NCBI GenBank assembly: GCA_963718855.1
Contig: CAVRAA010000009.1
Location: forward strand, 430,014 to 494,013
Origin: an uncultured Nitrospiraceae bacterium
Lineage (GTDB): Bacteria; Nitrospirota; Thermodesulfovibrionia; Thermodesulfovibrionales; SM23-35
Direction of reading: 5' to 3'
DNA: 64,000 bases
A program made the position numbers and the translations under genes. Each line of letters begins with the position of its first letter. Position 1 is the first letter of the stretch. Below are positions 11,065 through 63,839 of this stretch, piece by piece. The notes beneath the pieces were generated by a model. That model saw only the letters and a list, made by a program, of their open reading frames with translations. It was not told the origin of the DNA and did no database searches.

Positions 11065-11097
11065 TGTAATATTCCTGTAATATTTCTTTGCTATAGT
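11065..11097 (+). promoter_or_regulatory. Pho-box-like operator + -10 (TGTAATattccTGTAAT, 10 nt, TATAGT)
   Basis: Half-sites start at 11065 and 11076 (11-bp register). The -10 is at 11092-11097 and the ATG at 11104, 6 nt later, with no SD. Confidence 0.6.
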
Positions 11098-11103
11098 ACC
11101 TCC

Positions 11104-11538
11104 ATGGCAAGCGACAAAATAAAGGTCCTTTTTGTCTGTGTTCATAATTCAGCAAGAAGTCAAATGGCCGAAGCATTTCTAAACCATTACGGCGGAAATG
11201 TATTTGAAGCAGAAAGCGCGGGGTTGTCACCCGGCGAGCTGAATCCAGCGGTAGTAAACGTGATGAAAGAAGAAGGGTTCGATATTTCAGCCAATAAAAC
11301 AAAACGCGTATTTGATTTTGTGAAATCGGGAAAGACGTTTCATTATGTGATTACCGTCTGCGATCAGGCAACTGCCCAAAAGTGTCCGGTATTTCCCGGG
11401 ATAACCAAACGTCTCCACTGGTCGTTTGAAGATCCGTCTTCGTTTGCGGGAACATATCAGGAAAAGATGTCAAAAACCCGCGACGTGCGGGATAAGATAA
11501 AGTCCAGCGTACTCGAATTTATCAGGTCACTTTCATAA
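11104..11538 (+). CDS. arsC: arsenate reductase / low-molecular-weight phosphotyrosine phosphatase family (thioredoxin-coupled ArsC type)
   Basis: P-loop [16 protein letters not shown] (CX5R) plus the downstream Cys pair context ([14 protein letters not shown]). Paralogue at 56193-56627. Confidence 0.85.
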
Positions 11539-11715
11539 TTTGTCCAATTATTCGTTGAAGGAATCTACACGTCTCGTTCTTCCTCCGTATCTGAAAGATG
11601 CCTCTAAAGGCAGATGGTTCAGCCAGAAAATTCCAAATAACTCCTTATTGTTCTTCTATTGACAGCTTCCCATAAATATATTAATGTATATACAAAACTA
11701 CATACGAGGTAATTT

Positions 11716-11976
11716 ATGAAATTTGCAAATGTGAAAGAACTCCAGAAAGATGCATCTCGCATTATCAGTCTTGTTGAAAAGGGAGAGGATGTTATCATCA
11801 CCAAACGAGGCAAACCTGCTGCCGTTATATATCCGCTCAGTGAAGATACGATTGAGGATTATATGATTCAGCATAGCCCCAGCATCCGAAAAAAGATTGA
11901 AGAAGGGCTGAAAGACAGCAGAGAGGGGAAAATTATACCCCTGAGAGATATCATAAAGGCAAGAAAGCGTGCCTGA
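11716..11976 (+). CDS. type II antitoxin, Phd/YefM family
   Basis: 86 aa, N-terminal MKFANVKELQKDASRIISLVEKGEDVIITKRGKPAAVI. Overlaps the downstream toxin by 8 nt. Confidence 0.8.
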   Translation: MKFANVKELQKDASRIISLVEKGEDVIITKRGKPAAVIYPLSEDTIEDYMIQHSPSIRKKIEEGLKDSREGKIIPLRDIIKARKRA

Positions 11977-12235
11977 ATTCAGGGTCGTCTTTACTGTAAA
12001 AGCACAGAAGGACTTATCTGATTTACCTGAACACGAGATAGACCAAATCCTTTCATCTTGTTTGAGACTCGAAAGAAATCCTCATCCAGACGGTAAGCAT
12101 ATCAAGAAACTCAAAGGATACAAGGATCTGTATCGCCTCAGGATAGGGGATTACAGGGCAGTCTTTGAATGGCAAAGGAATACTGTTACCGTTGTTAGGT
12201 TGTTGACCAGGCAGGATTTCGGGAAAAGGTATTAA
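11969..12235 (+). CDS. relE: type II toxin, RelE/ParE family
   Basis: 88 aa with LKGYKDLYRLRIGDYRAVFEWQRNTVTVVRL, the RelE/StbE core pattern. Confidence 0.8.
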   Translation: MPEFRVVFTVKAQKDLSDLPEHEIDQILSSCLRLERNPHPDGKHIKKLKGYKDLYRLRIGDYRAVFEWQRNTVTVVRLLTRQDFGKRY

Positions 12236-12336
12236 TGAATCAATATCTTCCTCCTCCTTTTTCAAAGCTGACATAATGGTACAGAGTACAAACCATAATC
12301 AGAACAGATAATTCTGTACTTGATGTCAGCCGTTGC

Positions 12337-12367
12337 TGTCATTGCGAGCCGAAGGCGAAGCAATCTC
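12337..12367. repeat. half-copy of the cattgcgag...gcaatctc REP family
   Basis: tgtcattgcgagccgaaggcgaagcaatctc. A full palindromic copy lies at 15605-15681 and another half-copy at 14693-14720. Confidence 0.5.
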
Positions 12368-12432
12368 ATCTTCTATTCTTTACTATGTATCATAGCTGTC
12401 CAAGATATTCAGGACAGCTTCATTCGAGACAA

Positions 12433-14439
12433 TTAACCCATCCTCCGCAGGTTGCCCCTGATTTTGATAAAAAAGGGAAGGTGATCAGTGTCTATGTCGC
12501 GTCACTGTTTGATGTCCGAAAGGAGTGAGAAGTAAAAGCGCATGTAGTGCCGACTACCCCCTTGAAAACCTTGCGTTGAACTGCAATAATTTCGCACGAT
12601 GTATTTACGAAGACGTTGCCGCATCAAGGACGGGGTAAAGTATGAATCATGGGCACTGGTAGAATCCGTGCGGACGGCGCGAGGGCCACGTCAAAGGACA
12701 GTGGTAACAGTCGGTAAACTTCCCGGCCTGGATGAAGAGGAGAAGATTGGCTGGGAAGAGATAGGCCGTGTGCTTGATGGCAAGCCGGCGCCAACAGCGA
12801 CTCTGTTTAGGCAAGAGCCCGATATCCCTTCCTGGGCTACAGTCAATATCAAGGGCATACAAGTAGAGCGGCTTCGACATTTTGGAGATGTCTACCTCGG
12901 CCTTGCTCTTTGGAAGAGGCTGGGTCTTGAAAAGTTCTGCGAACAACATATACCTTCCGGCAGAGAAGATATTCCCTGGTCGGTAATGGCAGCTGTTCTT
13001 GGTCTCGCCAGATTCTGCGTCCCGTCGTCAGAACTGCAGATAGCAGATTCATGGTACGGCAAGACGGCACTTGATGATCTTCTTGGGGTGCCTGCCGAGA
13101 AGATTAACGATGATCGGTTATATCGTGCACTGGATGCGCTTCTTCCTCACAAGGACGCATTGTGCAAGCATTTACAGAAAAGATATGGGGAGCTGTTCGG
13201 CGTCAAATTCGATTTTCTTATTTATGACATTACTTCCACATATTTTGAGGGATCTGGGAAAGCCAACATCCAGGCAAAGAGAGGTTACAGCAGAGACGGC
13301 CGGCCTGACTGCGTGCAGGTCTGCATCGGACTGGTGGCCAGCGTCGAGGGGTTACCCCTTGCCTTTGAAGTTTTTGACGGAAACCGTACTGATGTAACCA
13401 CGGTCGAAGAGATGGTTGAGCTTATGCAGAACAAATACGGGAAAGCGGAGCGAATATGGGTAATGGACAGGGGGATGGTAAGCGAAGAAAACATAGAGTC
13501 CTTACAGAGCTGTGGCGCCCGCTACCTTGTTGGCACACCTAAATCCATGCTCAGAAAATTCGAGCATGAGCTTATTGATAAAGACTGGCAGGAGGTTCAG
13601 CCAGGGGTAGAGGTCAAACTTTGTTCTGCCCCCGATGGCACGGCGGAAAGTTTTGTTGTGTGCCGCTCGGAAGGGAGAAAAGATAAAGAAACAGCCATTC
13701 TGAACCGGTTCATTACACGATTGGAAGCGGGGCTTGATAAACTTAAGCAGCAGGCTGATCAGGGAAGACTCCGGGACCGGCAGAAGGCAGACCGCAGGAT
13801 CGGGCGTCTTCTGGAGAGAAACAGCCGGGCCGCATCTCTCTTTGACATCACGGTAGAAGAACAGGGAACGGGCATTGAGAAACGCCTGAAGGTAATCATC
13901 AAAAAACACGAAGACCGCTATGAGTGGCTCCTTTCCACCAGCGGCAGCTACCTTCTTCGCACTAACTGGACAGAGAAATATCCCAGGGAGATATGGAAAA
14001 CATATATTCAGCTTACTCAGGTAGAAGATGCCTTCCGGACCGCCAAGAGCGAGCTGGGGATGAGGCCGATCTATCATCATAAAGCGGATCGCACACAGGC
14101 TCATATCCTCGTGTGCTTTCTGGCACTGGTGCTGTGGCGGACACTTCAGCAGTGGATGGAGTGTTCAGGGCTGGGCACTGCTCCGAGGAAACTCCTTGAG
14201 GAACTGCGTGAGGTAAAGTCTCTCGATGTGCTTTTGCCTTCACGTGAAAACAAAACAATCCGGCTGCGAGTTGTGAGCACTGCGCCTCCTGGTCTGAAAA
14301 TTTTGCTTCAGCATTTGAAGCTGCCGCTGCCTAGCAGACCAAAGATCGTTGAAAATGTAGTGCCGACTTTGGCCGGGTGATCGAGCTAACTTATTGATTT
14401 GTAAAAACTTTGAATTTCAAACTGCGGAAAATGGGTTAA
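12433..14439 (+). mobile_element. IS1634-family (IS4-like) insertion sequence, about 2.0 kb
   Basis: The terminal inverted repeat ttaacccatcctccgcaggttg (12433-12454) matches the reverse complement of 14418-14439 at 19 of 22 positions (hand count). It contains a single DDE transposase ORF. I could not find a clear target-site duplication. Confidence 0.7.
12599..14380 (+). CDS. IS1634-family DDE transposase
   Basis: 593 aa: YDITSTYFEG ... GYSRDGRPDCVQVCIGL ... VMDRGMVSEEN ... YLLRTN ... YIQLTQVEDAFRTAKSELGMRPIYHH. Confidence 0.85.
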   Translation: MYLRRRCRIKDGVKYESWALVESVRTARGPRQRTVVTVGKLPGLDEEEKIGWEEIGRVLDGKPAPTATLFRQEPDIPSWATVNIKGIQVERLRHFGDVYLGLALWKRLGLEKFCEQHIPSGREDIPWSVMAAVLGLARFCVPSSELQIADSWYGKTALDDLLGVPAEKINDDRLYRALDALLPHKDALCKHLQKRYGELFGVKFDFLIYDITSTYFEGSGKANIQAKRGYSRDGRPDCVQVCIGLVASVEGLPLAFEVFDGNRTDVTTVEEMVELMQNKYGKAERIWVMDRGMVSEENIESLQSCGARYLVGTPKSMLRKFEHELIDKDWQEVQPGVEVKLCSAPDGTAESFVVCRSEGRKDKETAILNRFITRLEAGLDKLKQQADQGRLRDRQKADRRIGRLLERNSRAASLFDITVEEQGTGIEKRLKVIIKKHEDRYEWLLSTSGSYLLRTNWTEKYPREIWKTYIQLTQVEDAFRTAKSELGMRPIYHHKADRTQAHILVCFLALVLWRTLQQWMECSGLGTAPRKLLEELREVKSLDVLLPSRENKTIRLRVVSTAPPGLKILLQHLKLPLPSRPKIVENVVPTLAG

Positions 14440-14515
14440 CCTATTGAAATCGTAGTGTTTTGGAACGGTTTTGCTGTCGCTTTGAAATCAGGCTCCCTAT
14501 GCTGTCCAAAAAACG

Positions 14516-14612
14516 CTGGATATTGTCATACCGGCGAAAGCCGGTATCCAGTGACGTTAGCAATTCAATAAGGCTAAAAGTCGCTGGATTCCGGGTCGAG
14601 CCCGGAATGACA
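14516..14612. repeat. paired REP hairpins (ctggat-attgtcataccggcgaaagccggtatccag / ctggattccgggtcgagcccggaatgaca)
   Basis: The same two-hairpin architecture recurs at 39096-39185. It underlies the spurious ORF 14460-14777. Confidence 0.5.
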
Positions 14613-14692
14613 CCAAAAATTTACGGGTTTCACTTCTCTCAAATGCTGTCCAAGAAATTTATTTTGAACAAGAGTGACTATGTATATAAGGA

Positions 14693-14720
14693 GAGATTGC
14701 CGCGCTTCGCTCTCAATGAC
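14693..14720. repeat. half-copy (opposite arm) of the cattgcgag...gcaatctc REP family
   Basis: gagattgccgcgcttcgctctcaatgac. Confidence 0.45.
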
Positions 14721-14960
14721 GACCGAAATCCCAAGAACTGGTACTGTCTATTACCTACGGTAACTATTGGTTTTTGAATATTACCGATTTTCACTCTTCG
14801 CAGGTGTTGTTCGCACCTATATACAAATGTTTCCCCCTGTTGCTTTCATAAAGAAACCAGAATCTAAAGCAAATCGTACCAGGGCTTGACATATGACGTA
14901 GGCAATAAGATTATTTACACATAATATTGTGTTATAATTATGTGTAAATGGAGGTGTGAT

Positions 14961-15158
14961 ATGGCTACGAATCTCGCATTAGACGATGGACTGATTGCTG
15001 AGGCCCAAAAGGTCGGGCATCATAAAACAAAAAAAGACGCGGTAACAACTGCATTGAAAGAATACGTTGCGAGGAAAAAACAGATTGAAGTAATCGGCTT
15101 GTTCGGCAAAATCGATTTCGACAAAACCTATGACTATAAAAAAGCAAGAACGAGATGA
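14961..15158 (+). CDS. vapB: type II antitoxin, VapB family
   Basis: Start moved to MATNLALDD, after GGAGGTG. 65 aa. The stop overlaps the start of the PIN toxin (ATGA). Confidence 0.7.
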   Translation: MATNLALDDGLIAEAQKVGHHKTKKDAVTTALKEYVARKKQIEVIGLFGKIDFDKTYDYKKARTR

Positions 15159-15547
15159 AAGTCCTCGTTGATACGTGCGTTTGGTCTAAGGTCCTCAGAT
15201 ATAAAGCTTCAGACCTGGAGACAGCAGAGAGAATCAAGGAACTCATAAAGAACGGCACAGTAGTCATGATTGGGCCGATCCGACAGGAACTTCTCTCCGG
15301 AATATCCAATCTCTCACAATTCAACAAATTGAAAGAGGTGCTTTCTGCATTTCAGGATATTCCGCTTGAAAGCAAACACTTTGTGAAGGCTGCTGAATTC
15401 AGCAATATATGCCGAAAAAATGGCATTCAGGGTTCAACGATTGATTTTCTGATCTGCGCTGTAGCAACCATTCAAAACCTAATTATTTTTACCACCGATA
15501 AAGACTTCGAAAATTACAAAATATATTTGCCGATAAAATTGCTCTGA
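15155..15547 (+). CDS. vapC: type II toxin VapC (PIN-domain ribonuclease)
   Basis: 130 aa. Has the N-terminal acidic residue in MKVLVDTCVW and a C-terminal FTTDKDF, the PIN acidic quartet context. Confidence 0.85.
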   Translation: MKVLVDTCVWSKVLRYKASDLETAERIKELIKNGTVVMIGPIRQELLSGISNLSQFNKLKEVLSAFQDIPLESKHFVKAAEFSNICRKNGIQGSTIDFLICAVATIQNLIIFTTDKDFENYKIYLPIKLL

Positions 15548-15604
15548 GAAAATTTTTATTTTTTCATAGACGCCTAATATTTCTCAAATCCAACGGTAAA
15601 CCCC

Positions 15605-15681
15605 TGTCCTTGCGAACGAAGTGAAGCAATCTCGCATCTCAGGGTTGAGATTGCCACGGTCGCATCGACCTCGCAATGACA
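15605..15681. repeat. complete palindromic copy of the cattgcgag...gcaatctc REP family
   Basis: tgtccttgcgaacgaagtgaagcaatctc ... gagattgccacggtcgcatcgacctcgcaatgaca. Confidence 0.55.
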
Positions 15682-15770
15682 CGTGTATCAAACCTGCAAG
15701 AGAGTTATCGTCGGATTTCGTATTTATTGCCTTGAACCTTACCGTCTTGCATGGATATAATCACTCCATC

Positions 15771-16601
15771 ATGAAAAACCTCTGGAGCATACGGATGAGA
15801 GCATCCAAAAGAGTAGAGAGTAGTAAGCATGAAGCAGGTAGGGGAAAAGAAATCCATATCTCCGGCGCAGAGGGGCTTTATGAAGCATCGAATATTCAAA
15901 AGGCAGTAACGCGCTCAATCGAAAGGGCGCTCACCCATCCGAAAGGCAAGGCAGATAAAATCACCGTCACGATTGAAGAAATAAAGCGGAAACCGCTCGA
16001 AATATCATCGCTGCCTGTTGCAACGCTCGATTGTGATACACCGACCGAAGCAGAACATCAGATACTGCATATCCTTCTTTCTCTGGGGATTTCAAAAAAG
16101 GCGGTTAATGCAGCTTTCACGGCGATTAAAAATGGAGGGATGCGGGGCGCGACAATCATAACCTCTCAAAAGGGCATACAGCTTGAACCCGACAAAAAAA
16201 GAGGCGTGCGGGCATCGAGACTTGGGGTTACGAAAACAGCATCAACAAGCCTCTCGCTGCGACTTTCGCGGCATGGTATTAATACCGATGTGGTGAAAGA
16301 GGCATTGATTCTTGCATCAAAGGTCATGGCACACAGATACATCGTTGCGGAATTGTGCATCTCCGATGACCCCGGGTATACCACCGGGTATGTGGCTTCA
16401 AAAAAATACGGGTATGTCCGGATACCGCATATAAAAAAGAAGGGAAGCAGACACGGAGGAAGGGCTTTTTTTATACAGAAATCGGCTGATGCCGGAGATA
16501 TTATCCATTACCTTGAAGAGACTCCTGTCATGGTGGTAAATGCTGCAGCATGCAAAGGTATTCTATCGATTGATGAAATCCTCGATCATACTCATCTGTA
16601 A
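15771..16601 (+). CDS. bioW: 6-carboxyhexanoate--CoA ligase (pimeloyl-CoA synthetase)
   Basis: Start moved to MKNLWSIRMRAS. Shows HISGAEGL, KRGVRASR, KEALILASKV and ELCISDDPGYTTGYVA, which line up with my recollection of Bacillus BioW. Confidence 0.8.
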   Translation: MKNLWSIRMRASKRVESSKHEAGRGKEIHISGAEGLYEASNIQKAVTRSIERALTHPKGKADKITVTIEEIKRKPLEISSLPVATLDCDTPTEAEHQILHILLSLGISKKAVNAAFTAIKNGGMRGATIITSQKGIQLEPDKKRGVRASRLGVTKTASTSLSLRLSRHGINTDVVKEALILASKVMAHRYIVAELCISDDPGYTTGYVASKKYGYVRIPHIKKKGSRHGGRAFFIQKSADAGDIIHYLEETPVMVVNAAACKGILSIDEILDHTHL

Positions 16602-18684: not shown

Positions 18685-18701
18685 AGTAACAATATAACAG
18701 A

Positions 18702-18730: not shown

Positions 18731-18741
18731 ACTCTTCAGCC

Positions 18742-19258: not shown

Positions 19259-19260
19259 TC

Positions 19261-20595: not shown

Positions 20596-21591
20596 CTAAT
20601 CGAGAATCAGATGCAGCAGCTTGCAGATGATCCATGCAAGGATAAGGCATGCGGGAAGTGTAAGAAACCAGGCTAATACGATACTCTTGCCTATCCCCCA
20701 CCTTACTGCAGAAAACCTCTTCGACGCACCAACCCCCATTATCGTGGATGAAATAACATGGGTGGTTGACAAAGGAAGCCCTATTCTTGATGCAACTTCT
20801 ATTACTGTAGCGGCGGCAGTCTCTGCAGCAAACCCATGAATCGGCCTGAGTTGCACAAGCTTTACCCCGAGGGTCTTGATGATTCTCCACCCTCCTGCTG
20901 CGGTACCGAACGCCATCGCTGTCGCGCAGAGTACGATGACCCAGATCGGGACATGAAAATCAGGGAGGTGGTAATAACTGACCAGCGCCATTGTTATGAT
21001 ACCCATTGTTTTCTGGGCATCGTTGCTGCCGTGGCTGAATGCCATATAGGCTGCAGACACGATCTGAAGCCTTCCAAAAATATTACTGACTAATGTCGGT
21101 GTGGATTTTTTGAAAAGCCACATGAGAAAGTACATCAATAAAATACTCAAGGCAAACCCGATGAGAGGAGAGAGGAACAGCCCTATGAGGACCTTATACA
21201 CCCCTTTCGAAATAATAACGCTGAATCCTGATGTGGCAATTGCCGCGCCAACCACACCCGACAGGATCGCATGGCTTGAAGAGGTGGGAAGCCCGAGATA
21301 CCATGTGATTAAATCCCAGACAATGGCAGCTATCAAGGCGGCAATAATGGTGACCTGTGTAATAGAAACAGCCTGAACAAGACCGGATCCTACGGTTTTT
21401 GCAACTGCTGTGCCTGACAGCGCACCCACCATATTTAATCCAGCTGCCATTAAGACGGCAACCTTAGGCGTTAGAACCCTCGTGGATACTGATGTGGCAA
21501 TCGCATTCGCGGTATCGTGAAAGCCATTGATAAAATCGAAAATAAGGGCAAGGACGATAACGCAGAGGAGTAAGAAAAATGTTTCAGGCAT
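20596..21591 (-). CDS. pit: inorganic phosphate transporter, PiT family
   Basis: 331 aa, polytopic. Duplicated GFHDTANAIATSV / GSNDAQKTMGII signature of PiT/PHO4 carriers. Confidence 0.9.
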   Translation of the reverse strand: MPETFFLLLCVIVLALIFDFINGFHDTANAIATSVSTRVLTPKVAVLMAAGLNMVGALSGTAVAKTVGSGLVQAVSITQVTIIAALIAAIVWDLITWYLGLPTSSSHAILSGVVGAAIATSGFSVIISKGVYKVLIGLFLSPLIGFALSILLMYFLMWLFKKSTPTLVSNIFGRLQIVSAAYMAFSHGSNDAQKTMGIITMALVSYYHLPDFHVPIWVIVLCATAMAFGTAAGGWRIIKTLGVKLVQLRPIHGFAAETAAATVIEVASRIGLPLSTTHVISSTIMGVGASKRFSAVRWGIGKSIVLAWFLTLPACLILAWIICKLLHLILD

Positions 21592-22201
21592 TTTTGAGGA
21601 CTATCGCTTCCAGTATGTTGGCAACATCCTCACATTTGTCTGATGCGTCTTCGAGGTGTTCATAAATCTCTTTCCATTTAATAATGAGGATTGGGTCTTT
21701 TATTTCTTCAAACAAATGTCCGAGGGCGTCTCTGAACCCTCTGTCTATCCTGTTTTCGAGCTTATTGATCTCGATGCAGTATTCCTGGATATGGGAGTAA
21801 TTCTTTTCTCTCAGTTTCTTTATCGCCTTTTCAACAAACTCAACGGTTGTAAGGAGGTCCTTCGACATGGTAATCGCCCATTTCGTTGATTCCTTCAATT
21901 TAAATACCGTGAGCCTGTCGGCTGCGCCCCAGATAAGGTCAAGGATATCGTCTATTGATGAGGCAAGGGAATGAATGTCTTCCCTGTCTATGGGGGTTAC
22001 GAATGTCTTATTCAGTTTTTTGATGATATCATGGGTAAGAACGTCGCCGTCCTGCTCCAGTTCATGTATCTCTCTTGCCCAGGCATCCAGCGTAGTGAAA
22101 TGCTCCATAATGCCGACCAGGAGGGTTGCCGCATGGGTCACATTTGCCGCAGCATTCTCAAAAATCACAAAAAAATCTGTTTCTTTCGGAAATATTTTCA
22201 T
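21584..22201 (-). CDS. DUF47-family PhoU-like protein (Pit accessory / phosphate transport regulator)
   Basis: 205 aa, helical: E..GD.+.H.I...L...F+TP+DRED. Overlaps the pit start by 8 nt. Confidence 0.8.
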   Translation of the reverse strand: MKIFPKETDFFVIFENAAANVTHAATLLVGIMEHFTTLDAWAREIHELEQDGDVLTHDIIKKLNKTFVTPIDREDIHSLASSIDDILDLIWGAADRLTVFKLKESTKWAITMSKDLLTTVEFVEKAIKKLREKNYSHIQEYCIEINKLENRIDRGFRDALGHLFEEIKDPILIIKWKEIYEHLEDASDKCEDVANILEAIVLKNA

Positions 22202-24826: not shown

Positions 24827-24881
24827 TGTAACCGAAATTTAATCTTCCCTTAATATTCCTGTAACATTCCTACAGTAAATT
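24827..24881 (+). promoter_or_regulatory. Pho-box-like array, 4-5 half-sites in 11-bp register (TGTAAC, TTTAAT, CTTAAT, TGTAAC, TACAGT)
   Basis: Half-sites start at 24827, 24838, 24849, 24860 and 24871. A TAAATT -10 candidate follows at 24876-24881. Confidence 0.55.
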
Positions 24882-26589: not shown

Positions 26590-27831
26590 ATGCAACCGAA
26601 AAATAATTTCCTCTGGGGAGTCGCAACTTCCGCCTTCCAGCTTGAAGGATCACCGCATGCTGACTGGACGTCCTGGGACGCCATTCTGGATACGACTCCG
26701 AATGTAACCAATCATTACGTCCTCTACAGAGAAGACCTTGAGCTCCTGAAAGAGCTCGGCGTCAACGCATACCGGTTCTCGATAGAATGGAGCAGGATAC
26801 AGCCAAGGGAGAATGTGTGGGACGAGAAGGCAATCGAGCATTATCAGGAGATCATCAATATCCTCAATGAAAACCATATTGAGCCTATGGTTACGCTGCA
26901 CCATTTTACCCATCCGCTATGGTTCATCAAAAAATATCCCTGGCATAGCGATGCATCTGTCGACAAGTTCCTCGAATATACGGAGAAAATAGTATCCGCG
27001 ATCAAAGGGGTCCGGTACTGGATTACATTCAATGAGCCGTATGTTCTCCTTTTAGGCGGATACCTCGAAGGGTGCATGCCACCCGGCATCAGCAATCCTT
27101 CGCTGGCACTCAAAGCGCTGGAGAACATTCTCATATGCCATGGAAAGGCGTTCGACATGATCCATGCCAAAGTGCCCGGCGCCATGGTGAGTGTTGCGCA
27201 CAACATGGCGGCCCTTGCACCATGGGACAGATGGAACCCTTTCGACAGGCTGATTGCTGATATCGCAAAATATTTTTACAACCATTCGCTCCTCGACGCC
27301 TTTTTGACCGGCAGATTATACGTCAAATTCCCTTTCAGAAAACCGATCGAGCTCACTGTGCCGATTAAAGACAAACTCGACTTTTTCGGGGTGAATTACT
27401 ACACGAGGGTGCACATGCGATTTAACCCGTTCAAAAAGATGGGGGTCGAACTGAGGCACAGGGACATCGACGGATACGGCCTCACCGACATGGGATGGGA
27501 AATACACCCGCGCGGCCTCGCAAAGGTCCTGAGATATGCTTCGAAGCTGAACGTTCCCCTGCTCATCACCGAGAACGGCATCGCGACGCACAATGACCGG
27601 AAAAAAATAAAATTCATAAAGAGGCATATCGACACCATTGAACAGTGCATTCAGAACGGAATCGATGTGAGAGGCTATTTCTACTGGTCATTGATCGACA
27701 ACTACGAATGGCTGCAGGGACTTGATGCCCGGTTCGGCCTCTATCAGGTGGATTTCAATACCCTTGAGCGCAAACCCACCAAAGCAGCTTTATACTATTC
27801 ATATCTCATCAAAAGCAGAGCCCAGTTGTAA
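26590..27831 (+). CDS. glycoside hydrolase family 1 (beta-glucosidase type)
   Basis: 413 aa. Acid/base TFNEP and nucleophile ITENG motifs. N-terminal FLWGVATSAFQLEG. Confidence 0.9.
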   Translation: MQPKNNFLWGVATSAFQLEGSPHADWTSWDAILDTTPNVTNHYVLYREDLELLKELGVNAYRFSIEWSRIQPRENVWDEKAIEHYQEIINILNENHIEPMVTLHHFTHPLWFIKKYPWHSDASVDKFLEYTEKIVSAIKGVRYWITFNEPYVLLLGGYLEGCMPPGISNPSLALKALENILICHGKAFDMIHAKVPGAMVSVAHNMAALAPWDRWNPFDRLIADIAKYFYNHSLLDAFLTGRLYVKFPFRKPIELTVPIKDKLDFFGVNYYTRVHMRFNPFKKMGVELRHRDIDGYGLTDMGWEIHPRGLAKVLRYASKLNVPLLITENGIATHNDRKKIKFIKRHIDTIEQCIQNGIDVRGYFYWSLIDNYEWLQGLDARFGLYQVDFNTLERKPTKAALYYSYLIKSRAQL

Positions 27832-27848
27832 CAATAATTTCACACTTC

Positions 27849-27881
27849 CTTCATACTCCTGTAATTAATAAAACTTATCAT
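27849..27881 (+). promoter_or_regulatory. Pho-box-like operator + -10 (CTTCATactccTGTAAT, 10 nt, TATCAT)
   Basis: Half-sites at 27849 and 27860, -10 at 27876-27881, ATG at 27889 (7 nt later, no SD). Confidence 0.5.
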
Positions 27882-29820: not shown

Positions 29821-29864
29821 TGTAACATCTCTTTCATATTCCTGTAATATGCGTCTGCTAAGAT
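29821..29864 (+). promoter_or_regulatory. Pho-box-like operator + -10 (TGTAAC, TTTCAT, TGTAAT in 11-bp register; TAAGAT)
   Basis: Half-sites at 29821, 29832 and 29843. -10 at 29859-29864. Confidence 0.5.
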
Positions 29865-30107: not shown

Positions 30108-30164
30108 GGTAACAAAAACTTCATCCGTTTGTAACAGTCCTGTAACAGACAATGTGTTATTGTT
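30108..30164 (+). promoter_or_regulatory. Pho-box-like operator (GGTAAC at 30108; TGTAACagtccTGTAAC at 30130/30141) + TGTTAT/TATTGT -10 candidates
   Basis: Offsets are 22 and 11 bp. The gene start at 30183 has AAAGGAGG. Confidence 0.55.
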
Positions 30165-30182: not shown

Positions 30183-30416
30183 ATGCATTTTAGCCGTATT
30201 TTCACATTATGTCCCTATCTCTCAGGCAGTCTTGAAGGCATTGTATGCAACGCCGCTCTGACATTGGTAAGAAACATCAGCGATATCGACCCTGACATGT
30301 GTATCACCAGGCATTTCGAACTCTGCCATATCTATATCTCCAAGCTTGGGGAGATGAACGCATTTCCGGCTTTCACCGAGACCGGGTGCGGACAGATTCC
30401 TTTAACCGAAATGTAA
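30183..30416 (+). CDS. small 4-Cys protein (77 aa), paralogue of 29887-30084
   Basis: CPY-x9-C ... C-x7-C-x-I-Y. Same order and spacing class as the upstream gene. Confidence 0.5.
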   Translation: MHFSRIFTLCPYLSGSLEGIVCNAALTLVRNISDIDPDMCITRHFELCHIYISKLGEMNAFPAFTETGCGQIPLTEM

Positions 30417-30455
30417 CATTCCCGTCATAACGCTGTAACACTGCCCTCGTATGAT
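30401..30455 (+). promoter_or_regulatory. Pho-box-like array of four half-sites (TTTAAC, TGTAAC, CGTCAT, TGTAAC) + TATGAT
   Basis: Half-sites start at 30401, 30412, 30423 and 30434. -10 at 30450-30455. ATG at 30462 (6 nt later, no SD). Confidence 0.6.
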
Positions 30456-37175: not shown

Positions 37176-37176
37176 A

Positions 37177-37862: not shown

Positions 37863-37907
37863 ATGTTAACAGTTCTTTTATTACAGCAATGTTACAGAAC
37901 GATGAAA
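37863..37907 (-). promoter_or_regulatory. Pho-box-like operator on the minus strand (TTTCAT, TGTAAC, TGTAAT in register) + TAACAT
   Basis: Reverse complements of atgaaa (37902-37907), gttaca (37891-37896) and attaca (37880-37885). -10 candidate at 37868-37863. Confidence 0.5.
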
Positions 37908-38954: not shown

Positions 38955-38998
38955 ACTTTATCCGATCGATGTTACAGGGATATTACGGGCGTGTTAAG
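38955..38998 (-). promoter_or_regulatory. Pho-box-like operator on the minus strand (CTTAAC, CGTAAT, TGTAAC in register) + TAAAGT
   Basis: Reverse complements of gttaag (38993-38998), attacg (38982-38987) and gttaca (38971-38976). After 10 nt, the -10 lies at 38960-38955. Confidence 0.55.
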
Positions 38999-45115: not shown

Positions 45116-45181
45116 ATGATACCCGGATGTCTTTACATGACGATGACACTATTGTGACAATCAGGTTATCGATTCATTACC
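45116..45181 (-). promoter_or_regulatory. Pho-box-like array of five half-sites on the minus strand (GGTAAT, GATAAC, TGTCAC, TGTCAT, TGTAAA) + TATCAT
   Basis: The plus-strand hexamers start at 45176, 45165, 45154, 45143 and 45132, exactly 11 bp apart. After 10 nt, the -10 lies at 45121-45116. Confidence 0.6.
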
Positions 45182-45283: not shown

Positions 45284-45327
45284 TTTAACACGACTGTAAC
45301 ATCCCTGTAACATGACTCTGTTATTTT
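45284..45327 (+). promoter_or_regulatory. Pho-box-like operator (TTTAAC, TGTAAC, TGTAAC in register) + TATTTT, facing the chaperone-usher genes
   Basis: Half-sites start at 45284, 45295 and 45306. -10 candidate at 45322-45327. Confidence 0.55.
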
Positions 45328-49130: not shown

Positions 49131-49200
49131 GAGAACAGTAAGCCAGAGCTTGCTTTGAAGGCTGGAAAAAGCTTTCCGCCCCGCACACAAGAAAAGAGAG

Positions 49201-49254
49201 TTAACAAAATATTAACCCGATCTTCATAACCACGTAACAAAAATAATGTAAGTT
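49201..49254 (+). promoter_or_regulatory. weaker Pho-box-like array (TTAACA, TTAACC, ..., CGTAAC) upstream of the atypical regulator
   Basis: TAAC cores end at 49205, 49216 and 49238 (offsets 11 and 22). TAAGTT lies 10 nt after the last. Confidence 0.35.
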
Positions 49255-50087: not shown

Positions 50088-50098
50088 ATTTACACAAT

Positions 50099-50142
50099 TG
50101 TAATATTCATTTCACAATCCTGCAATAAATTGCCTTTAGACT
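50099..50142 (+). promoter_or_regulatory. Pho-box-like operator (TGTAAT, TTTCAC, TGCAAT in register) + TAGACT
   Basis: Half-sites start at 50099, 50110 and 50121. -10 candidate at 50137-50142. Confidence 0.45.
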
Positions 50143-56192: not shown

Positions 56193-56627
56193 TTAAGAAG
56201 ACTGCTTGATAAATTCCTGCACCATGGATTTGATATTCTCTCGGATAACACGCGTCTTCGCCATTTTTTCCTCATGGCTTCCGACAAACGATGAAGGATC
56301 TTCAAATGACCAGTGGAGTCTCTTCGTTACACCCGGGAAAACCGGACATCGTTGAGCAGTTGCCTCATCACAGACACTGATTACATAGTGGTACAATTTA
56401 CCGGCCTTCACCAAATCAAACACCGTGCTCGCCTGCTTGGCTGAGATATCAATCCCTTCTTCTTTCATGGCTTCAACCGCAAGGGGATTTAATTCTCTTG
56501 CCTCAAATCCTGCACTTTCCGCCTCGAAGCGGTCTTCTCCGTAGTAATTGAGGAACGCTTCAGCCATCTGACTTCTTGCTGAATTATGAACACACACGAA
56601 TAATACCTTAATTGTATTTTCCCCCAT
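56193..56627 (-). CDS. arsC: arsenate reductase / LMW-PTP family, paralogue of 11104-11538
   Basis: [25 protein letters not shown]... is collinear with the first copy over all 144 aa. Confidence 0.85.
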
Positions 56628-56633
56628 TCTTCA

Positions 56634-56666
56634 AGAATACCAGAGAAATGTTACAGGAATATTACA
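56634..56666 (-). promoter_or_regulatory. Pho-box-like operator + -10 on the minus strand (TGTAATattccTGTAAC, 10 nt, TATTCT)
   Basis: Reverse complements of attaca (56661-56666) and gttaca (56650-56655). -10 at 56639-56634. ATG at 56627 (6 nt later, no SD). Confidence 0.6.
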
Positions 56667-57659: not shown

Positions 57660-58871
57660 TTACCGTTCGGTCCGGGCTGCAGCGTCCTGCAGAAGCGAAA
57701 CTTTATCGGTTATCTCCCAAGGGAGGCCGATATCCATGCGTCCCACATGTCCATATGAGGCAAGTTTTCTATAAAAGCCGCCTTTGATTGTTGAGGGCAG
57801 ATACCTCAAATTAAACTGCCTTACTATTGCGGCAATGCGGAAGTCAAAAGTCCATTCGACCAGCAATGCAATTTCTTCATCAGAGATTTTCCCGGTACCA
57901 AAGGTCTCTACCTGAATACTCACAGGGCCCGCGATGCCAATGGAATAGCTGAGCTGGATTTCACACTCATCGGCGATGCCGGCAGCGACAATATTCTTTG
58001 CTGCATACCGGGCAGCATATGCCCCAACCCTGTCAATACGCAAGGGGTCTTTTCCGCTCAGGGCCGCGCCGCTATGCCTTGAATACTCGCCGTAGGTATC
58101 GATTGCGTTTTTTCTGCCGGTCAGGCCTGAATGCACGGAAGGCCCTCCGGTAATGAAGGGACCATCAGGGTTCACAAATATCCTGCTTTTCTCATCAGGG
58201 GTTATCGCCTCGTCGCGGAAGACCGGGCGAATAACGTACTCCATAATATCGTCCCGGAGTCTTTTCAGTCCGGGCTCTGCAGAGTCATTCTGGCTGGCTA
58301 TAACAGTAATGGTGTGGATCCTGAATGGCCTTCGGTTCCTGAATTCGATCCCAACCTGGGTTTTTCCGTCAGGGGCGATGTAAGGCAAAATCTTCTGGAG
58401 TCTCACAGAAGTAAGTCTTCTGGCAATTTTATGCGCAAGCCAGATCGGCAACGGCATAAAGGCAGACGTCTGGTTGCAGGCAAAGCCAAATGCCGTAACC
58501 TGGTTCTTAACCGGTATACGCCCGATTTCCTCATCAGTAAGATTCTTTTCATCAAACGTGCGGTACTCCTCTGAAGGCAGTTCCTTAAGGCTGGTTACAA
58601 TGCTGCAGGTCTTGCCGCTGAAAGAGCTGCTGTCATAGCCTATTTGGCTGATCACTTTTCTTGCAACAGCGGGGAAATCTATGGTTGCGTCAGATGCGAA
58701 CCGTGCTGCTATAAAAATAATAGCGGTTGCGACCGCGCACTCCGCGATTACCCGGGAAAAAGGGTCATGTTCAAGAAACTGGTCTACAATGCCGTCACTG
58801 ATCTGATCGCAGAGTTTATCAGGATGTCCTTCTGTTACAGATTCGGATGTGAACATGAAATCTTTTTTCAT
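57660..58871 (-). CDS. metK: S-adenosylmethionine synthetase (methionine adenosyltransferase)
   Basis: FTSESVTEGHPDKLCDQISD, GDQG-region equivalents, GGPSVHSGLTGRK and GGAALSGKDP. The start overlaps the ATPase stop by 4 nt. Confidence 0.85.
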   Translation of the reverse strand: MKKDFMFTSESVTEGHPDKLCDQISDGIVDQFLEHDPFSRVIAECAVATAIIFIAARFASDATIDFPAVARKVISQIGYDSSSFSGKTCSIVTSLKELPSEEYRTFDEKNLTDEEIGRIPVKNQVTAFGFACNQTSAFMPLPIWLAHKIARRLTSVRLQKILPYIAPDGKTQVGIEFRNRRPFRIHTITVIASQNDSAEPGLKRLRDDIMEYVIRPVFRDEAITPDEKSRIFVNPDGPFITGGPSVHSGLTGRKNAIDTYGEYSRHSGAALSGKDPLRIDRVGAYAARYAAKNIVAAGIADECEIQLSYSIGIAGPVSIQVETFGTGKISDEEIALLVEWTFDFRIAAIVRQFNLRYLPSTIKGGFYRKLASYGHVGRMDIGLPWEITDKVSLLQDAAARTER

Positions 58872-61800
58872 TGGTTGCTCCTCATCGGAAGAAATTCTGC
58901 CTGTATATCATGCATTGCGGGGGCCCGCTCGCTGCTTTTTGTTGCTTCGTTTATCATAAGAGGAAGAAAAGCGCTTACTCCAATCACCAAACCGTCGATG
59001 AGACCTATGGGCGTAAGACCGAGAAGGCTTCTGAGCCCGGGGAAAGTCATCGCCGCTATCTGCAGGGCAAACGAACCCCCGAGCGCCCAATTCAGGTATG
59101 TATTCGAAGGCAATTTCTCTTTGCCAAATATCACCGCTCTATCAGCACGGCAGCTGATCGCGTGGAGGAGCTGCCCCACGGTGAGACTCGAAAAGGCAAG
59201 GGTCCCTGCCTGCGGACCAATGCCATACCGCGCTATCCCATAGCCGTATGCGCTGAGGCTCCCGGCGCTGATTACTGCCGACTCAAAGGCTATCCGCTTA
59301 AAATCCGCCGTCTGCATGATCGCTTCGTTGGGATCACGGGGCGGCCTGCTTAATACATCGGGCTCCGGCGGTTCAAGCGCAAGGGCAAGTCCCGGGAAGA
59401 TATCGGATAACAGGTTGATCCAGAGCAGCTGCATGGTATTCAGCGGCTGGCCGAGTCCAAGGGTAATGGCGGCAAACATGACCATGATTTCGCTCATGTT
59501 TGTAGCGAGTAGAAAATGCACTGATTTGCGGATATTGTTGTAAATTGTCCTTCCATGGCTGACTGCGATAATCATCGTCTGGAGATTATCATCTTCCAGA
59601 ATTACATCCGCAACCTCGCGGGCAACATCCGTGCCGGTATGCCCCATGGCGATGCCAATATCAGCGGCTTTCAATGCAGGACCGTCGTTGATGCCGTCAC
59701 CTGTCATCGCCACGATCTTTCCAGCGCTCTGCAGTGACTGTACTATCTGCAACTTGTGGGAAGGACTGACCCGTGCAAAGACGTGCGCCCTCTCGCAAAG
59801 GGCCTTGAGTATCTCCGGGGGGATATCGGCAAGATGCCGCGAGTCCAGTATTTCCAGCTGCTCACCTTTGCTCAAATTCAGTTCTCTTGCTATTGCATAG
59901 GCTGTCGGACTCTGATCTCCGGTGATCATAATCGTGTCTATGCCCGCATGATGGAAATCGCCAATCAGCTTCTTTACCCCTTTCCTGACAGGGTCTGCCA
60001 GGCCGACAATACCAAGCCATGTGAGTCCAGAGAAAAACATCTCTTCTCCGTTTTCAGGCGTAGTGTTCTCCCTGTGAGCATAGGCCAGGCCCAGCACCCG
60101 GAACGCCTTCCCTGCCATATGTTCATTTTCCAGTTCAAAAAAGAGCTTGTCCTCCTCCGACAAAGGGATCCGATCGCCGTCTTTCATATACCAGTCGCAG
60201 AGAGCAAGCACCTCCCTCGGGCTCCCTTTGACAGCGATAATTTTCCGGTTCCTAAAGTCTTCGATTATAGGTTCCTCCCCAGCGCTGTCTGCAACCGCTG
60301 ACGCATATTCATGAAGCGACATTTCTTGTATGCTGTGGGAAGTCAGCATGACATTCCTGTTTTCAGAGCGGTGGACGACCTTTAATAATGGAGCGTTTTT
60401 TCGCACCTGTCCAATATCTACCCCGGCTTCTATCGCCATGTGCATGAAAGCGTTTTCTGTCGGGCTGCCGGTAATGACATAGTCCCCGTTCTGATGAATT
60501 ATTTCACTCTCATTGCAGAGGACAGATACATGGATAAGCATCAGGAGTTCATTACAGGCATACGGGCTGACACCTGTATGATCAGAAATGAATTTCCCGT
60601 CAGAAACCTGGAAGAGTTTCGTGCCAATGAAGATCTCCCGCACGGACATCCTGTTCATCGTCAACGTTCCTGTCTTGTCCAGGCATATTGTCTGAACAGA
60701 TCCGAGGGTCTCGACAGCTTCGAGATGACGTATCAGGACATTGTGCCTCCGCATGTTTCTGATGCCGAGAGCGAGTGTTGTGGTCGCGACTGCGGGAAGA
60801 CCTTCGGGAACTGCTGCGACAGCAAGGGCTATGGACGTCTTCAGCATCTCCAGAAATCCATATCCGTAGAGAATTCCAATACAGAAAACAACCCCGCAGA
60901 CAACCCCGCTGATGAGGACAAGCTGGCCGCCCATCTGGTCAAGTTTTCTTTCCATCGGAGTCTCAGGAGGTTTTGCCTTTCCGAGGATCGTCTGTATATT
61001 GCCCATTTCCGTAAATCTGCCTGTGGCCACCACAACAGCAACTCCCTGCCCTCCTGTGACAAGCGTCCCCATAAAAACCATATTTGTTTTTTCTGCCAAT
61101 GGAACATGGTCCTGCAAAATCGGTGGTATGGTTTTTTTGACCGGCATGCTTTCACCTGTCAGGGCCGATTCATCAACGCTCAGGTGTTCAGCCTCCAGGA
61201 GTCTCGCATCGGCAGCTACATAGGTCCCGGGTCTGAGGATAAGGAGGTCGCCGGGGACGATATCCCCTGAGCTCACAGCATGTACTTTCCCTTCCCTGAG
61301 GACCAAAGCAGAAGGTCTTACAAGGGTTTTTAATGAATGGATGGTCTTTTCCGTCCCGCTTTCAGAGGCATAACCAATGAAGGCATTAACCCCTATGACA
61401 GCTACAATCACGAGTGCATCGGCAAGCCCTCCGGTAGCAAGGGAAATGACAGCTGCAACACCGAGAAGACCTACAGGGATGGACTTCAGCTGGCTGATAA
61501 AAATACTGAACCCGGAACGCGGGACTGATTCAGGAAGAATATTGGGTCCATAGTGTTTCAGGTTTTCCCTCGCGACTCCGGCTGACAACCCTGTCTCTTT
61601 GTCGGTGCAAAGGACCTCCATGACAGAGGCGGGATTCATCTGGTGCCATTGTGCGACTCTTTGCGGTGCAGCCTTAATGATACTTTGCCGGAATTTTCTT
61701 CTCGACTGCTTTGCAGCGGAAAACCCCTTGACGCCTTTTCGTTGAGAGGCGCCAGTGTGCACCTTAAGCCTCTCCGGCTGGAAAGGCACGTGCGGTTTTT

Positions 61801-62062
61801 CACAGTGCAATGCGTATTTGGATGCTATCTCATAAAGAATGACAGCAATATCAGAATGGGTTTTATCTGAATTAAAAAAAACAAGAATGTTGCCTGTCAG
61901 GGTATTGATGGAAAAGTGCTGTATGCCATCCCTGCCGGAAAGGCCGGATTCGATCCGCTGTTTAAGCAGCTCCGAACGGAAGAGCCCCTGTATATTATAG
62001 CGCGCTCTCCCTTTGACAGAGACGTGCATTGTCTTGACCACAGGCATTAACTCCGCAGGCAA
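58868..62062 (-). CDS. P2-type cation-transporting ATPase with N-terminal HMA2-like extension
   Basis: TGES, [8 protein letters not shown] (TM4), [35 protein letters not shown]. The N-terminus [16 protein letters not shown] ... [10 protein letters not shown] resembles the HMA2-like ORFs. Confidence 0.9.
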   Translation of the reverse strand: [1064 protein letters not shown]

Positions 62063-62075
62063 TCGCTGCTGTTAT

Positions 62076-62762
62076 CTATTCTCCCCCTCTTTTTCTGGAT
62101 CGCGAAATCTCCGACTTCGTTTTGGCAGTATCGGAGGCAGTCTTTGCTTTCTGAGTGCCTGAAGTTGGCTTCGCTTGCGGGACTGCAGCGCTGAGAACCT
62201 CCTTGACTCCTTCAACAACGCCGACAAGCATGTCCTTCACAGACCTTACCGCGGTATTCCCTATCAGGCCCGCAGCTTCAATCGCTCCGCCGACCGCAAC
62301 TTTTGCGACATCTTCAACGTTCCCGCCGATCTCCTTTGTGGCTTCGATGACTCCGTCAACCGCTCTTCTTGCAACCAGCCCGACATCGGCTCCGATCTCA
62401 GCAGCGCCTTTTACGGCGCCTTTCACCGTCTGCCCGGATACTGTCAAGACATCTCCGCCAACGTCGCTGATACCCATCACAATGCCCTTCGCAACGCTTT
62501 TTGTGCTGAGAATAAGCCCTGTGCCGACCTCTTCGGTTGCTGCAATAGCACCCTTTATCACATCTTTGGATAGATGCACGCCTTCGCTGGCGACCGTTCC
62601 GGTTGCCTTCAGGGTATTCGACACCGTGTTTCTCACAAGGCTGACGATTTCAGCCTCTATTTCGTTAATACCTTTGAGACTGCTTATAATGCCGTCTTTG
62701 ACAGACAAGCCCGCTTTTCCCATCGATTTTTCAGTCGTTCCTGTGGTTGCTTTCTTTGCCAT
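62076..62762 (-). CDS. repetitive Gly/Val/Ala/Lys-rich protein (amphipathic repeat pattern), function unknown
   Basis: Start moved to MAKKATTG, after AAGGAGGGG. Recurrent V.KG.+.A..E+G motifs run throughout. Confidence 0.45.
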   Translation of the reverse strand: MAKKATTGTTEKSMGKAGLSVKDGIISSLKGINEIEAEIVSLVRNTVSNTLKATGTVASEGVHLSKDVIKGAIAATEEVGTGLILSTKSVAKGIVMGISDVGGDVLTVSGQTVKGAVKGAAEIGADVGLVARRAVDGVIEATKEIGGNVEDVAKVAVGGAIEAAGLIGNTAVRSVKDMLVGVVEGVKEVLSAAVPQAKPTSGTQKAKTASDTAKTKSEISRSRKRGGE

Positions 62763-62833
62763 GAGTCCCCTCCTTTTCTTCTCAAACAATTTTCTACGGT
62801 GGTTGATATGAGCTAGTGAGTAATATTTGTCCT

Positions 62834-63313
62834 TTACACTTCTTTGGCCTGGGCCTTTAAAAAAATGTTGAGTGCATACCAGAGTGCTGTATACCACGCA
62901 GGCGCAGTGAAGTTGCCCCGGCTTATTTGAATAACGCTGAGTCCCACAAGGGTCAACAAAGCAAGATCCGGTACATTTGCAAAACCTTTGGTCGAAACAA
63001 TTACCCTGCTGTTTACATCCCTAAATGTTTCCGATACCTTTCGTGAAATGTATGTCTGTTTTTCAAAAGGTTTTACGTCTTCGATCCTGAAAAGATTGCC
63101 CTGCTCAGCGTATGCTGCGATCTTTCTGGAATTCAATTCATGAATCACCAGAACGCTCGCAGTCAGAGCATTTACCACAACCCTTGCGATTCCTTCATAT
63201 CCGGACATCTGCTTGTGCACATCGTCAAAATAACGCGCATCTCCTTTTTTTGAAGGTATCTTGACCCTGAGCCTGCCTGGGATGACATGGCTTACATACG
63301 CATCAGGCAGCAT
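62834..63313 (-). CDS. HMA2-like domain protein with C-terminal membrane segments
   Basis: VIPGRLRVKIPSKKGD ... VVVNALTASVLVIHE, then hydrophobic C-terminal segments. Confidence 0.5.
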   Translation of the reverse strand: MLPDAYVSHVIPGRLRVKIPSKKGDARYFDDVHKQMSGYEGIARVVVNALTASVLVIHELNSRKIAAYAEQGNLFRIEDVKPFEKQTYISRKVSETFRDVNSRVIVSTKGFANVPDLALLTLVGLSVIQISRGNFTAPAWYTALWYALNIFLKAQAKEV

Positions 63314-63319
63314 TTCGGT

Positions 63320-63622
63320 CTACGTTCCTTCCGGGGCAACAGACTCCGCTACTTCTTCCTGAAGGTCCTCCGTCTGGGCTTTCGCTTCAGCCAATTCGGA
63401 TTGTACTTCAGCCATAAGGTCCTCAACTACCTCTTTGGTTTCGGCAAACGTTTCTACTCCTTTTTGATACAGAAGGACACCGCTTTTCAGCGCTGCTTTC
63501 GCCAAGGGCTTAGCGATGTTTGCCAGGACCGGGATGACTGCGGGAGCAAGCACGGAAGCCCCTACGCCGATCGCAAGGCCGGTTAATATATTGCCTTTGA
63601 ACCCGTTATTAAAAAGACCCAT
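63320..63622 (-). CDS. small membrane protein with acidic coiled C-terminus (I recall similar proteins as DUF5132; unverified)
   Basis: 100 aa: GLAIGVGASVLAPAVIPVLANIAKPLAKAALK, then an E/A-rich helix. AGGGAGGA lies upstream. Confidence 0.4.
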   Translation of the reverse strand: MGLFNNGFKGNILTGLAIGVGASVLAPAVIPVLANIAKPLAKAALKSGVLLYQKGVETFAETKEVVEDLMAEVQSELAEAKAQTEDLQEEVAESVAPEGT

Positions 63623-63784
63623 AGATGATCCTCCCTTTGTTGTTGAATGGAATATGAGCTACCGATTGTGTGTACTCCTTAAACACAGAATTGTATGCCT
63701 GTCAAGGAAGTACTCAATTTAAGGATATAACCATCGGACAGCAAAGTCTACAAACTCTTTCATTACTTTCCTAAGAGGACGGAA

Positions 63785-63839
63785 TGTCATCAATACTTAA
63801 CATTTCGTTCATACTCATGTAAAAAACGTATGGTTTAAT
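63785..63839 (+). promoter_or_regulatory. Pho-box-like array (TGTCAT, CTTAAC, GTTCAT, TGTAAA in register) + TTTAAT
   Basis: Half-sites start at 63785, 63796, 63807 and 63818. -10 at 63834-63839. ATG at 63847 (7 nt later, no SD). Confidence 0.5.

Follow-up and report, generated by a model that had tools for sequence, protein, structure and literature searches.

Fourteen promoters in a 64,000-nt stretch of DNA from an uncultured Nitrospiraceae bacterium (contig CAVRAA010000009.1, positions 430,014 to 494,013; hereafter the window) carry tandem arrays of an 11-bp direct repeat, which we take, at a probability of roughly 0.85, to be the Pho box used by this lineage of Thermodesulfovibrionia (Nitrospirota). 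The first-pass annotation had already proposed a Pho box, and this reading is supported by matching arrays at the pstS promoters of relatives, by matches in the window to a matrix trained on those promoters, and by the PhoB contact residues kept in a response regulator encoded in the window (named RR1). The arrays and the genes behind them are listed in Table 1.

The repeat unit consists of a 7-bp core, (T/C)(G/T)TAA(C/T)A, and four variable bases, and it recurs every 11 bp. In the unit matrices of the window sites and of the relatives' pstS promoters, the core positions T-G/T-T-A-A-C/T-A, which are related to TGTCA, are followed by low-information positions. Half-site pairs of the form YKTMAY-N5-YKTMAY occur 26 times in the window against 1.82 expected, and none of 100 dinucleotide-preserving shuffles reached this number (maximum, 7). 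The form TGTAAY-N5-TGTAAY, with at most one mismatch, occurs nine times (0.44 expected). The spacing between same-strand half-sites peaks sharply at 11 (26 pairs; most other spacings have about three), with a smaller rise at 22. All but one of the 26 pairs lie within the 14 promoter regions, every one pointing to its downstream gene; the sole stray pair, 47131 (-), is located within the usher gene. Each array has two to five units, and only the 11-bp units recur, the flanks being unrelated between sites. Thus, the earlier claims of at least 14 phased TGTAAC/TGTAAT arrays and of two to five half-sites with starts 11 bp apart both hold, the former at all 14 coordinates.

The arrays also share a fixed position relative to the promoter. 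At 14/14 promoters a -10-like hexamer (TATAGT, TATCAT, TATGAT, TAAGAT and TATTCT among others) begins 16 bp past the start of the proximal unit (17 bp at 30141), so that the proximal 6-mer ends 10 nt before the -10, as had been proposed from the letters alone. An architecture scan for proximal units that have further units upstream and T[AT]NNNT at +16 returned 10 sites, all of them intergenic and none outside the 14 listed, against 0.05 in Markov-shuffled sequence. The window does contain a DDE transposase and rearrangements, which would suit an origin of the copies as dispersed remnants of a mobile repeat, if not as a chance or compositional artefact. We regard this explanation as practically negligible: it is refuted by the shuffles, by the architecture scan and by the conservation of arrays at orthologous promoters of relatives in which a second regulator of the locus (RR2, see below) is only about 60% identical, and the strict orientation, the fixed -10 distance and the unrelated flanks also speak against it.

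The connection to phosphate comes from the pst genes of relatives. An exact look-up of RR1 returned no contig, and homologues place the window among uncultured Thermodesulfovibrionia (Nitrospirota). The syntenic relative L001, whose PhoB is 96% identical, is collinear with the window over 19.7-30.4 kb at 87-90% DNA identity and continues with small-Cys-protein genes and then pstS-pstC-pstA, the pstSCA genes being 8 kb downstream of phoBR. Directly upstream of its pstS stand TGTAACAGAAA TGTAACGGAAC TGTAACATTCT TGTAATAATTC, 5 nt and TATTGT, which comprise four perfect TGTAAY units in 11-bp register. We retrieved Nitrospirota loci with the L001 PstS and obtained 24 pstS promoters with sufficient upstream sequence. 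At least two in-register units are present in 23/24 of them and at least three in 21/24, compared with an array in 25/734 control 200-nt windows from the same loci, many of which are neighbouring Pho promoters. The usual pstS array is TGTAAC-TTTAAC-TGTAAC-TGTAAY, then 5 nt and TATTGT, with the same 16-bp offset as in the window; the second unit of pstS and porin arrays almost invariably reads NTTAAY, most often TTTAAC. In locus L013, the operon behind the array encodes PstS, PstC, PstA, PstB and PhoU, all above the NCBIfam cut-offs. The check suggested in the first-pass annotation, whether pstSCAB and phoU carry the motif, therefore gave a positive answer in the relatives, at these 23 pstS promoters and at the L013 pstSCAB-phoU operon. 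A unit matrix trained only on the pstS promoters of 22 genomes, with L001 left out, gave 11 pair matches of at least 12 bits in the window (0.37 expected), all at listed sites. Pairs of (T/C)GT(A/C)A(C/T) with 11-bp spacing are also present at 27/48 pstS promoters of other phyla (Syntrophales, Syntrophobacterales, Synergistota and others) and in 7/1619 of the corresponding control windows, indicating that the half-site is this lineage's variant of a Pho box with wide distribution.

Many members of the OmpR family read similar 11-bp direct repeats, and the genes behind the arrays are largely metal- or redox-flavoured (HMA_2, MopE-repeat, DsbA, TonB and ArsC-like). The arrays might on these grounds be operators of another OmpR-family regulator with a different signal, for example metal, redox or envelope stress. 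However, the same array with the same -10 spacing is the conserved pstS promoter element of the relatives, arrays flank the phoBR locus both in the window and in L001, and RR2 is the only OmpR-family regulator in the window besides RR1. We rejected this explanation on these three grounds and consider it very improbable.

Under the Pho-box reading, RR1 is the presumed binder and the kinase encoded directly behind it its presumed sensor. The labels phoB-phoR, PiT, PhoU-like, PHP and GT21 given in the first-pass annotation were upheld by Pfam and NCBIfam: the best family of RR1 is PhoB, and the kinase reaches the PnpS cut-off (401 bits; cut-off 400). The top solved relative of RR1 is RegX3. In an alignment with Escherichia coli PhoB, RR1 keeps the acidic pocket, Asp, Thr and Lys of the receiver, as well as T194, V197, R201, R219 and E191. 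In E. coli PhoB, Arg201 recognizes a guanine, Thr194 and Val197 make contacts with thymines, and Arg219 reaches between half-sites, while an acidic patch (Glu177, Glu191) faces sigma-4 (PMC3973317). The phoBR genes are linked to phosphate transport by the divergent PiT and PhoU_div genes in the window and by the downstream pstSCA in L001. The phoB promoter is of the sigma-70 type (TTGCAT, 18 nt, TATAAG) and looks leaderless.

Several observations weigh against the Pho-box reading. RR1 scores 273.6 bits with its best family, PhoB TIGR02154, which is under the equivalog cut-off of 296.2, and the kinase scores 290.4 with phoR_proteo, under the proteobacterial PhoR cut-off of 334.2. A Pho box was found neither at phoB's own promoter nor at the PiT/PhoU_div promoter, and the pstS-trained matrix and the architecture scan, which covered both, gave no site in the window beyond the 14. 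The sites at 38955, 45116, 49201 and 63785 are weaker by matrix score. Because the window is without a pst operon of its own, the arrays are linked to canonical Pho genes by way of relatives, and the closest of these has 87-90% DNA identity. Finally, RR2 shares most DNA-reading residues of PhoB (R201 being Lys), and the sites can thus not be divided between the two regulators by sequence alone.

Known Pho boxes are of the CTGTCAT type in E. coli, TT(A/T/C)ACA for Bacillus PhoP and PyTTAAPyPy(T/A) for cyanobacterial SphR, and the box of the E. coli pstS promoter starts 16 bp before the start of the -10. The arrays described here resemble the class II PhoB promoters of E. coli (pstS, phoA, phoE) in having 11-bp units with a 7-bp core and a 4-bp spacer, arranged head-to-tail in tandem, in replacing the -35 by the array, and in the 16-bp offset to the -10 seen at E. 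coli pstS. T194, V197, R201 and R219 are shared by the two PhoBs, and a porin and pstSCAB-phoU are targets in E. coli and predicted targets here. On the other hand, the E. coli core is CTGTCAT and that of the window TGTAAC/T, phoBR is apparently not autoregulated here, the kinase has a periplasmic Cache-like domain and HAMP, several targets look leaderless, and the regulon cargo differs. The boxes of Bacillus PhoP, cyanobacterial SphR and Streptomyces PhoP are likewise tandem direct repeats of about 11 bp with a variable number of units, read by a PhoB/PhoP-type regulator. The cyanobacterial half-site is close to the TTAAY core found here; lineage and consensus differ from ours in all three. 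For Streptomyces PhoP, direct repeat units of 11 nt have been described (PMC2275107). Our literature search found nothing relevant on a Pho box in Nitrospirae or Thermodesulfovibrio, including an experimental definition, on pstS in Thermodesulfovibrionia, or on cohesin/dockerin genes in a Pho regulon.

We infer the identity of the binder, the direction of regulation and the signal from sequence. The contact residues of RR1 and the distance from box to -10 make textbook class II activation by phosphorylated PhoB the best-supported model. Under phosphate limitation, the Cache/HAMP/PAS kinase would phosphorylate the PhoB orthologue, and PhoB dimers would bind two to five tandem units head-to-tail at the -35 position, with the proximal 6-mer ending 10 bp before the -10. 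Once bound, PhoB would recruit the holoenzyme with sigma-70 in the manner of class II PhoB promoters of E. coli. The 14 window promoters would thereby be switched on, yielding the porin, PHP and GT21, the small Cys-rich and HMA_2 proteins, two thioredoxin-type ArsC-like proteins, the TonB-ExbBD-receptor operon, a probable selenocysteine DsbA (Sec-DsbA), the cohesin/dockerin/MopE-repeat surface proteins, chaperone-usher pili and RR2.

Table 1. Repeat arrays with their downstream genes, and regulatory and other gene products, in window coordinates
Feature	Position	Strand	Details
Array, 2 units TGTAATATTCC TGTAATATTTC, -10 TATAGT	11065..11097	+	15.3 bits; ArsC-like gene 11104-11538, ATG 6 nt past -10, looks leaderless
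Array, 4 units, -10 TAAATT	24827..24881	+	upstream of porin 24896-26164
Array, 4 units, -10 TATCAT	27827..27881	+	PHP phosphoesterase 27889-28581; GT21 glycosyltransferase 28593-29811
Array, 3 units, -10 TAAGAT	29821..29864	+	small Cys-rich protein, probable start 29887, end 30084
Array, 4 units, -10 TATTGT	30108..30163	+	best pair 24.2 bits; 77-aa Cys protein 30183-30416
Array, 4 units, -10 TATGAT	30401..30455	+	leaderless InsA-like zinc-ribbon gene 30462-30779; HMA_2 gene to 31131
Array, 3 units, hexamer TTAACA	37864..37907	-	22.9 bits; 191-aa protein, TonB, ExbB, ExbD, ExbD, TonB-dependent receptor (37752 down to 31916)
Weaker array, 3 units, -10 TAAAGT	38955..38998	-	DsbA-like gene 38877-37969
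Degenerate array, up to 5 units, proximal TGTAAAGACAT, -10 TATCAT	45116..45181	-	dockerin/beta-helix, cohesin-MopE and SCPU genes (44962 down to 39347)
Array, 3 units, -10 TATTTT	45284..45327	+	PapD chaperone, usher, SCPU pilin (45530-49130)
Array, 4 units, G-poor, -10 TAAGTT	49200..49254	+	upstream of RR2
Array, 4 units ATTTACA TGTAATA TTTCACA TGCAATA, -10 TAGACT	50088..50142	+	cohesin/MopE-repeat genes 50185-51141 and 51708-56054
Array, 2 units, -10 TATTCT	56634..56666	-	17.7 bits; leaderless ArsC-like gene 56627-56193
Weaker array, 4 units, proximal TGTAAAAAACG, hexamer TTTAAT	63785..63839	+	gene from 63847 running past window end; HMA2-like according to the first-pass annotation
PiT (PHO4) and PhoU_div genes	20596..22201	-	Pfam; divergent from phoB
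phoB-like response regulator RR1	22307-23005	+	Pfam: REC and Trans_reg_C, OmpR-type; best NCBIfam family PhoB
Cache/HAMP/PAS histidine kinase	23005-24792	+	Pfam: HisKA/HATPase; periplasmic Cache-like domain and HAMP
RR2, orphan OmpR-type regulator	49323-50087	+	REC and winged helix; probable start 49368; best family PhoB
Porin, GH1, PHP phosphoesterase, GT21	24896-29811	+	Pfam/NCBIfam
Small Cys-rich proteins, InsA-like zinc ribbon, HMA_2 protein	29863-31131	+	Pfam/NCBIfam
Dockerin, cohesin, MopE-repeat proteins; PapD, usher, SCPU	39347-56054	both	Pfam/NCBIfam

A surface-protein island of 25 kb is conserved as a block in locus L083, where a few kb separate it from pstSCAB-phoU within one 266-kb contig of a metagenome-assembled genome (MAG). 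The L083 island contains genes for LMWPc, beta-helix/dockerin, cohesin-MopE, SCPU, PapD, usher, SCPU, RR2, two cohesin proteins, Sec-DsbA and TonB-ExbBD-receptor. Across the loci L083-L091, arrays are kept before PapD (L083, L085, L090), before RR2 (L083, L085, L090, L091), before the cohesin genes (the 50088 array; seven orthologous promoters in the loci of five relatives) and before the first gene of the TonB operon, with a matching array before the homologous first gene in L088. The counterpart of the 45116 array in L083 is weaker and differently composed (GTTAACA TTTTATA TTTCATC TGTAAAA and TATCAT before the beta-helix gene), and no array was found at the counterpart position in L088. Outside the island, the porin array recurs before the porin gene in L001, L003, L017, L022 and L025, homologues of the small Cys-rich protein behind the 29821 array also stand behind arrays in L001, L014 and L019, and arrays precede an HMA2-like gene and an ArsC-like gene (L015). 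Arrays are present, too, at small membrane protein and Cys-rich genes adjoining pstS in relatives. With arrays before them, the cohesin/dockerin, pilus, TonB, Sec-DsbA and ArsC-like genes and RR2 are probably under phosphate control, an unusual set for such a regulon.

The products of the two ArsC-like genes, at 11104 and 56627 (-), belong to LMWPc, with thioredoxin-type ArsC as the best family. The CX5R loop and the two cysteines downstream of it are retained in both. Arsenate enters cells via phosphate transporters, and ArsC-like genes under a phosphate trigger make sense for this reason. Among metagenome homologues, those at 76% and 73% identity, the nearest two, have the box in the two-unit leaderless layout, and no box was found at homologues of 68% identity or less, which presumably belong to other lineages. 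The association thus appears lineage-specific, and the more distant homologues double as a negative control.

RR2 is 47% identical to the lineage's own PhoB, and its receiver has lost the phospho-acceptor Asp (to Asn), the Thr (to Ala) and the Lys (to Glu). The alignment bears out the label of an atypical regulator or paralogue that the first-pass annotation had attached at 49201/49347. RR2 belongs to a small clade (P0121-P0132) with 55-90% identity and an abrupt drop to 50% or less against ordinary PhoBs, in which the Asp is replaced by Asn (by Ser or Lys in two members), the Thr by Ala or Ser and the Lys by Glu or Ala. The recognition helix, RTIDVHIRKLR in RR2 and RT(V/I)DVHIRKLR in the clade, is near-identical to that of PhoB, the wing is kept, and RR2 retains T194, V197 and R219 (E. 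coli numbering). Two changes in the effector domain are consistent across the clade relative to PhoBs, namely R201K and E191G. All genomic contexts that were recovered show the gene among cohesin/MopE genes, usually together with SCPU/PapD/usher genes, and no adjacent kinase gene exists in the window or in the loci L083-L091. Aspartate-less or atypical regulators of the OmpR/PhoB family, such as ChxR and HP1043/HsrA, and aspartate-less receiver (ALR) domains have been described (PMC4395418, PMC3960148, PMC8345958). RR2 shares with the ChxR and HP1043/HsrA class the orphan status, the REC and winged-helix composition and the clade-wide loss of the Asp and catalytic residues. Unlike that class, RR2 arose recently as a paralogue of the lineage's PhoB, has a near-identical recognition helix and stands behind a Pho-box-like array in an island predicted to be Pho-controlled.

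These features raise an alternative that we hold tentatively and below even odds, namely that some or all arrays, especially those at 45116, 45284, 49201 and 50099, are phosphorylation-independent operators of RR2, which might act with PhoB (by feed-forward or as a heterodimer) or compete with it. The retained contact residues and helix, the confinement of the clade to cohesin/MopE neighbourhoods and the differences from PhoB at the guanine-reading R201 and the sigma-4-facing E191 would fit such a role, as would the conserved G-poor array ATTTACA / TKTAATA / TTTCAYA / TGCAAYA at both promoters flanking RR2, its own and that of the adjoining cohesin gene. Against it, units with T for G are present in pstS and porin arrays too, and the PapD and TonB-operon arrays consist of canonical TGTAAC units. 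The frequency of G at unit position 2 is also alike in non-island (about 67%) and island (59%) arrays of the window; an attempt to sort PhoB and RR2 sites by this position gave no usable difference, with only the RR2 and cohesin promoters being clearly G-poor. PhoB as the reader of the Pho box could also be combined with RR2 in a two-tier response, an idea we put forward as speculative: phosphorylated PhoB would drive the island, seen here as a surface-scavenging one with Csu-type pili and a dedicated selenocysteine DsbA, via TGTAAC boxes and induce RR2. Without needing phosphorylation, RR2 would read the G-poor arrays of its own and the cohesin promoter, locking in or damping island expression. 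If so, a master two-component regulator would have spawned a phosphorylation-blind copy of itself with a shared operator.

In the DsbA-like gene, a TGA in frame occupies the first Cys position of CXXC (FSDYQ-TGA-PYC), in agreement with the Sec-DsbA label that had been placed at the 38955 site. The TGA is kept in a distant relative (L083 15209-16036), and a GC hairpin is located about 14 nt downstream. We take the product to be a probable selenocysteine DsbA, encoded alongside the Cys-rich MopE-repeat proteins. The genes at 39942-43322 (-) and 50185-56054 (+) encode very large secreted proteins with cohesin domains and 8-14 MopE-type Cys-rich metal-binding repeats, and a dockerin/beta-helix partner is encoded at 43382-44962. 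Sequence searches for a function of the dockerin protein recovered nothing beyond the dockerin module and a weak beta-helix signal. The cohesin/dockerin set is a non-cellulosomal system. The GT21 gene (28593-29811) consists of two overlapping open reading frames in the window and encodes a single 405-aa protein in L001, which indicates a frameshift, either of a pseudogene or from an assembly error. The 77-aa Cys protein is truncated relative to its 128-aa homologue in L001. A P-type cation ATPase (58868-62062, -) has an N-terminal HMA_2 domain, which it shares with the small Pho-box-driven protein at 30700-31131.

At some of the promoters, the start ATG is only 6-7 nt past the -10 (11092-11106, 27876-27891, 30450-30464, 56625-56639 (-) and 63834-63849), and the same is seen at phoB's own promoter (22293-22309). 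This distance implies leaderless mRNAs. By contrast, pstS and the small Cys-protein genes have leaders with AGGAGG.

The gene order around phoBR varies among relatives. Synteny with L001 stops at window position 30357, and L001 runs on to pstSCA. The window segment 30357-31653 contains the truncated Cys protein, the Pho-box InsA-like zinc ribbon, the HMA_2 gene and a C-terminal PhoH fragment (31237-31653), which suggests that a rearrangement may have displaced the pst operon in the window organism. In the relative L002, phoBR directly follows zapA; in the window, about 11 kb lies between them (11000-22300), containing a Pho-box ArsC-like gene and the DDE transposase (12599-14380). Elsewhere in the window, a gene for a 23S rRNA intervening-sequence protein (2632-3006, -) is located between trpE and trpG and is absent there in L002.

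As the mechanism is a textbook one, these results are of value for annotation and as leads and do not establish a new principle. The unit consensus, the array layout and the -10 distance provide a usable Pho-box model for uncultured Thermodesulfovibrionia and Nitrospirota, with which the phosphate regulons of subsurface and sediment sulfate-reducer relatives become predictable from MAGs. RR2 offers a testable case of regulator duplication on a shared operator. Phosphate scarcity is the probable trigger for otherwise unexplained genes of the conserved island, including the cohesin/dockerin and MopE-repeat proteins, archaic chaperone-usher pili, the TonB system and Sec-DsbA.

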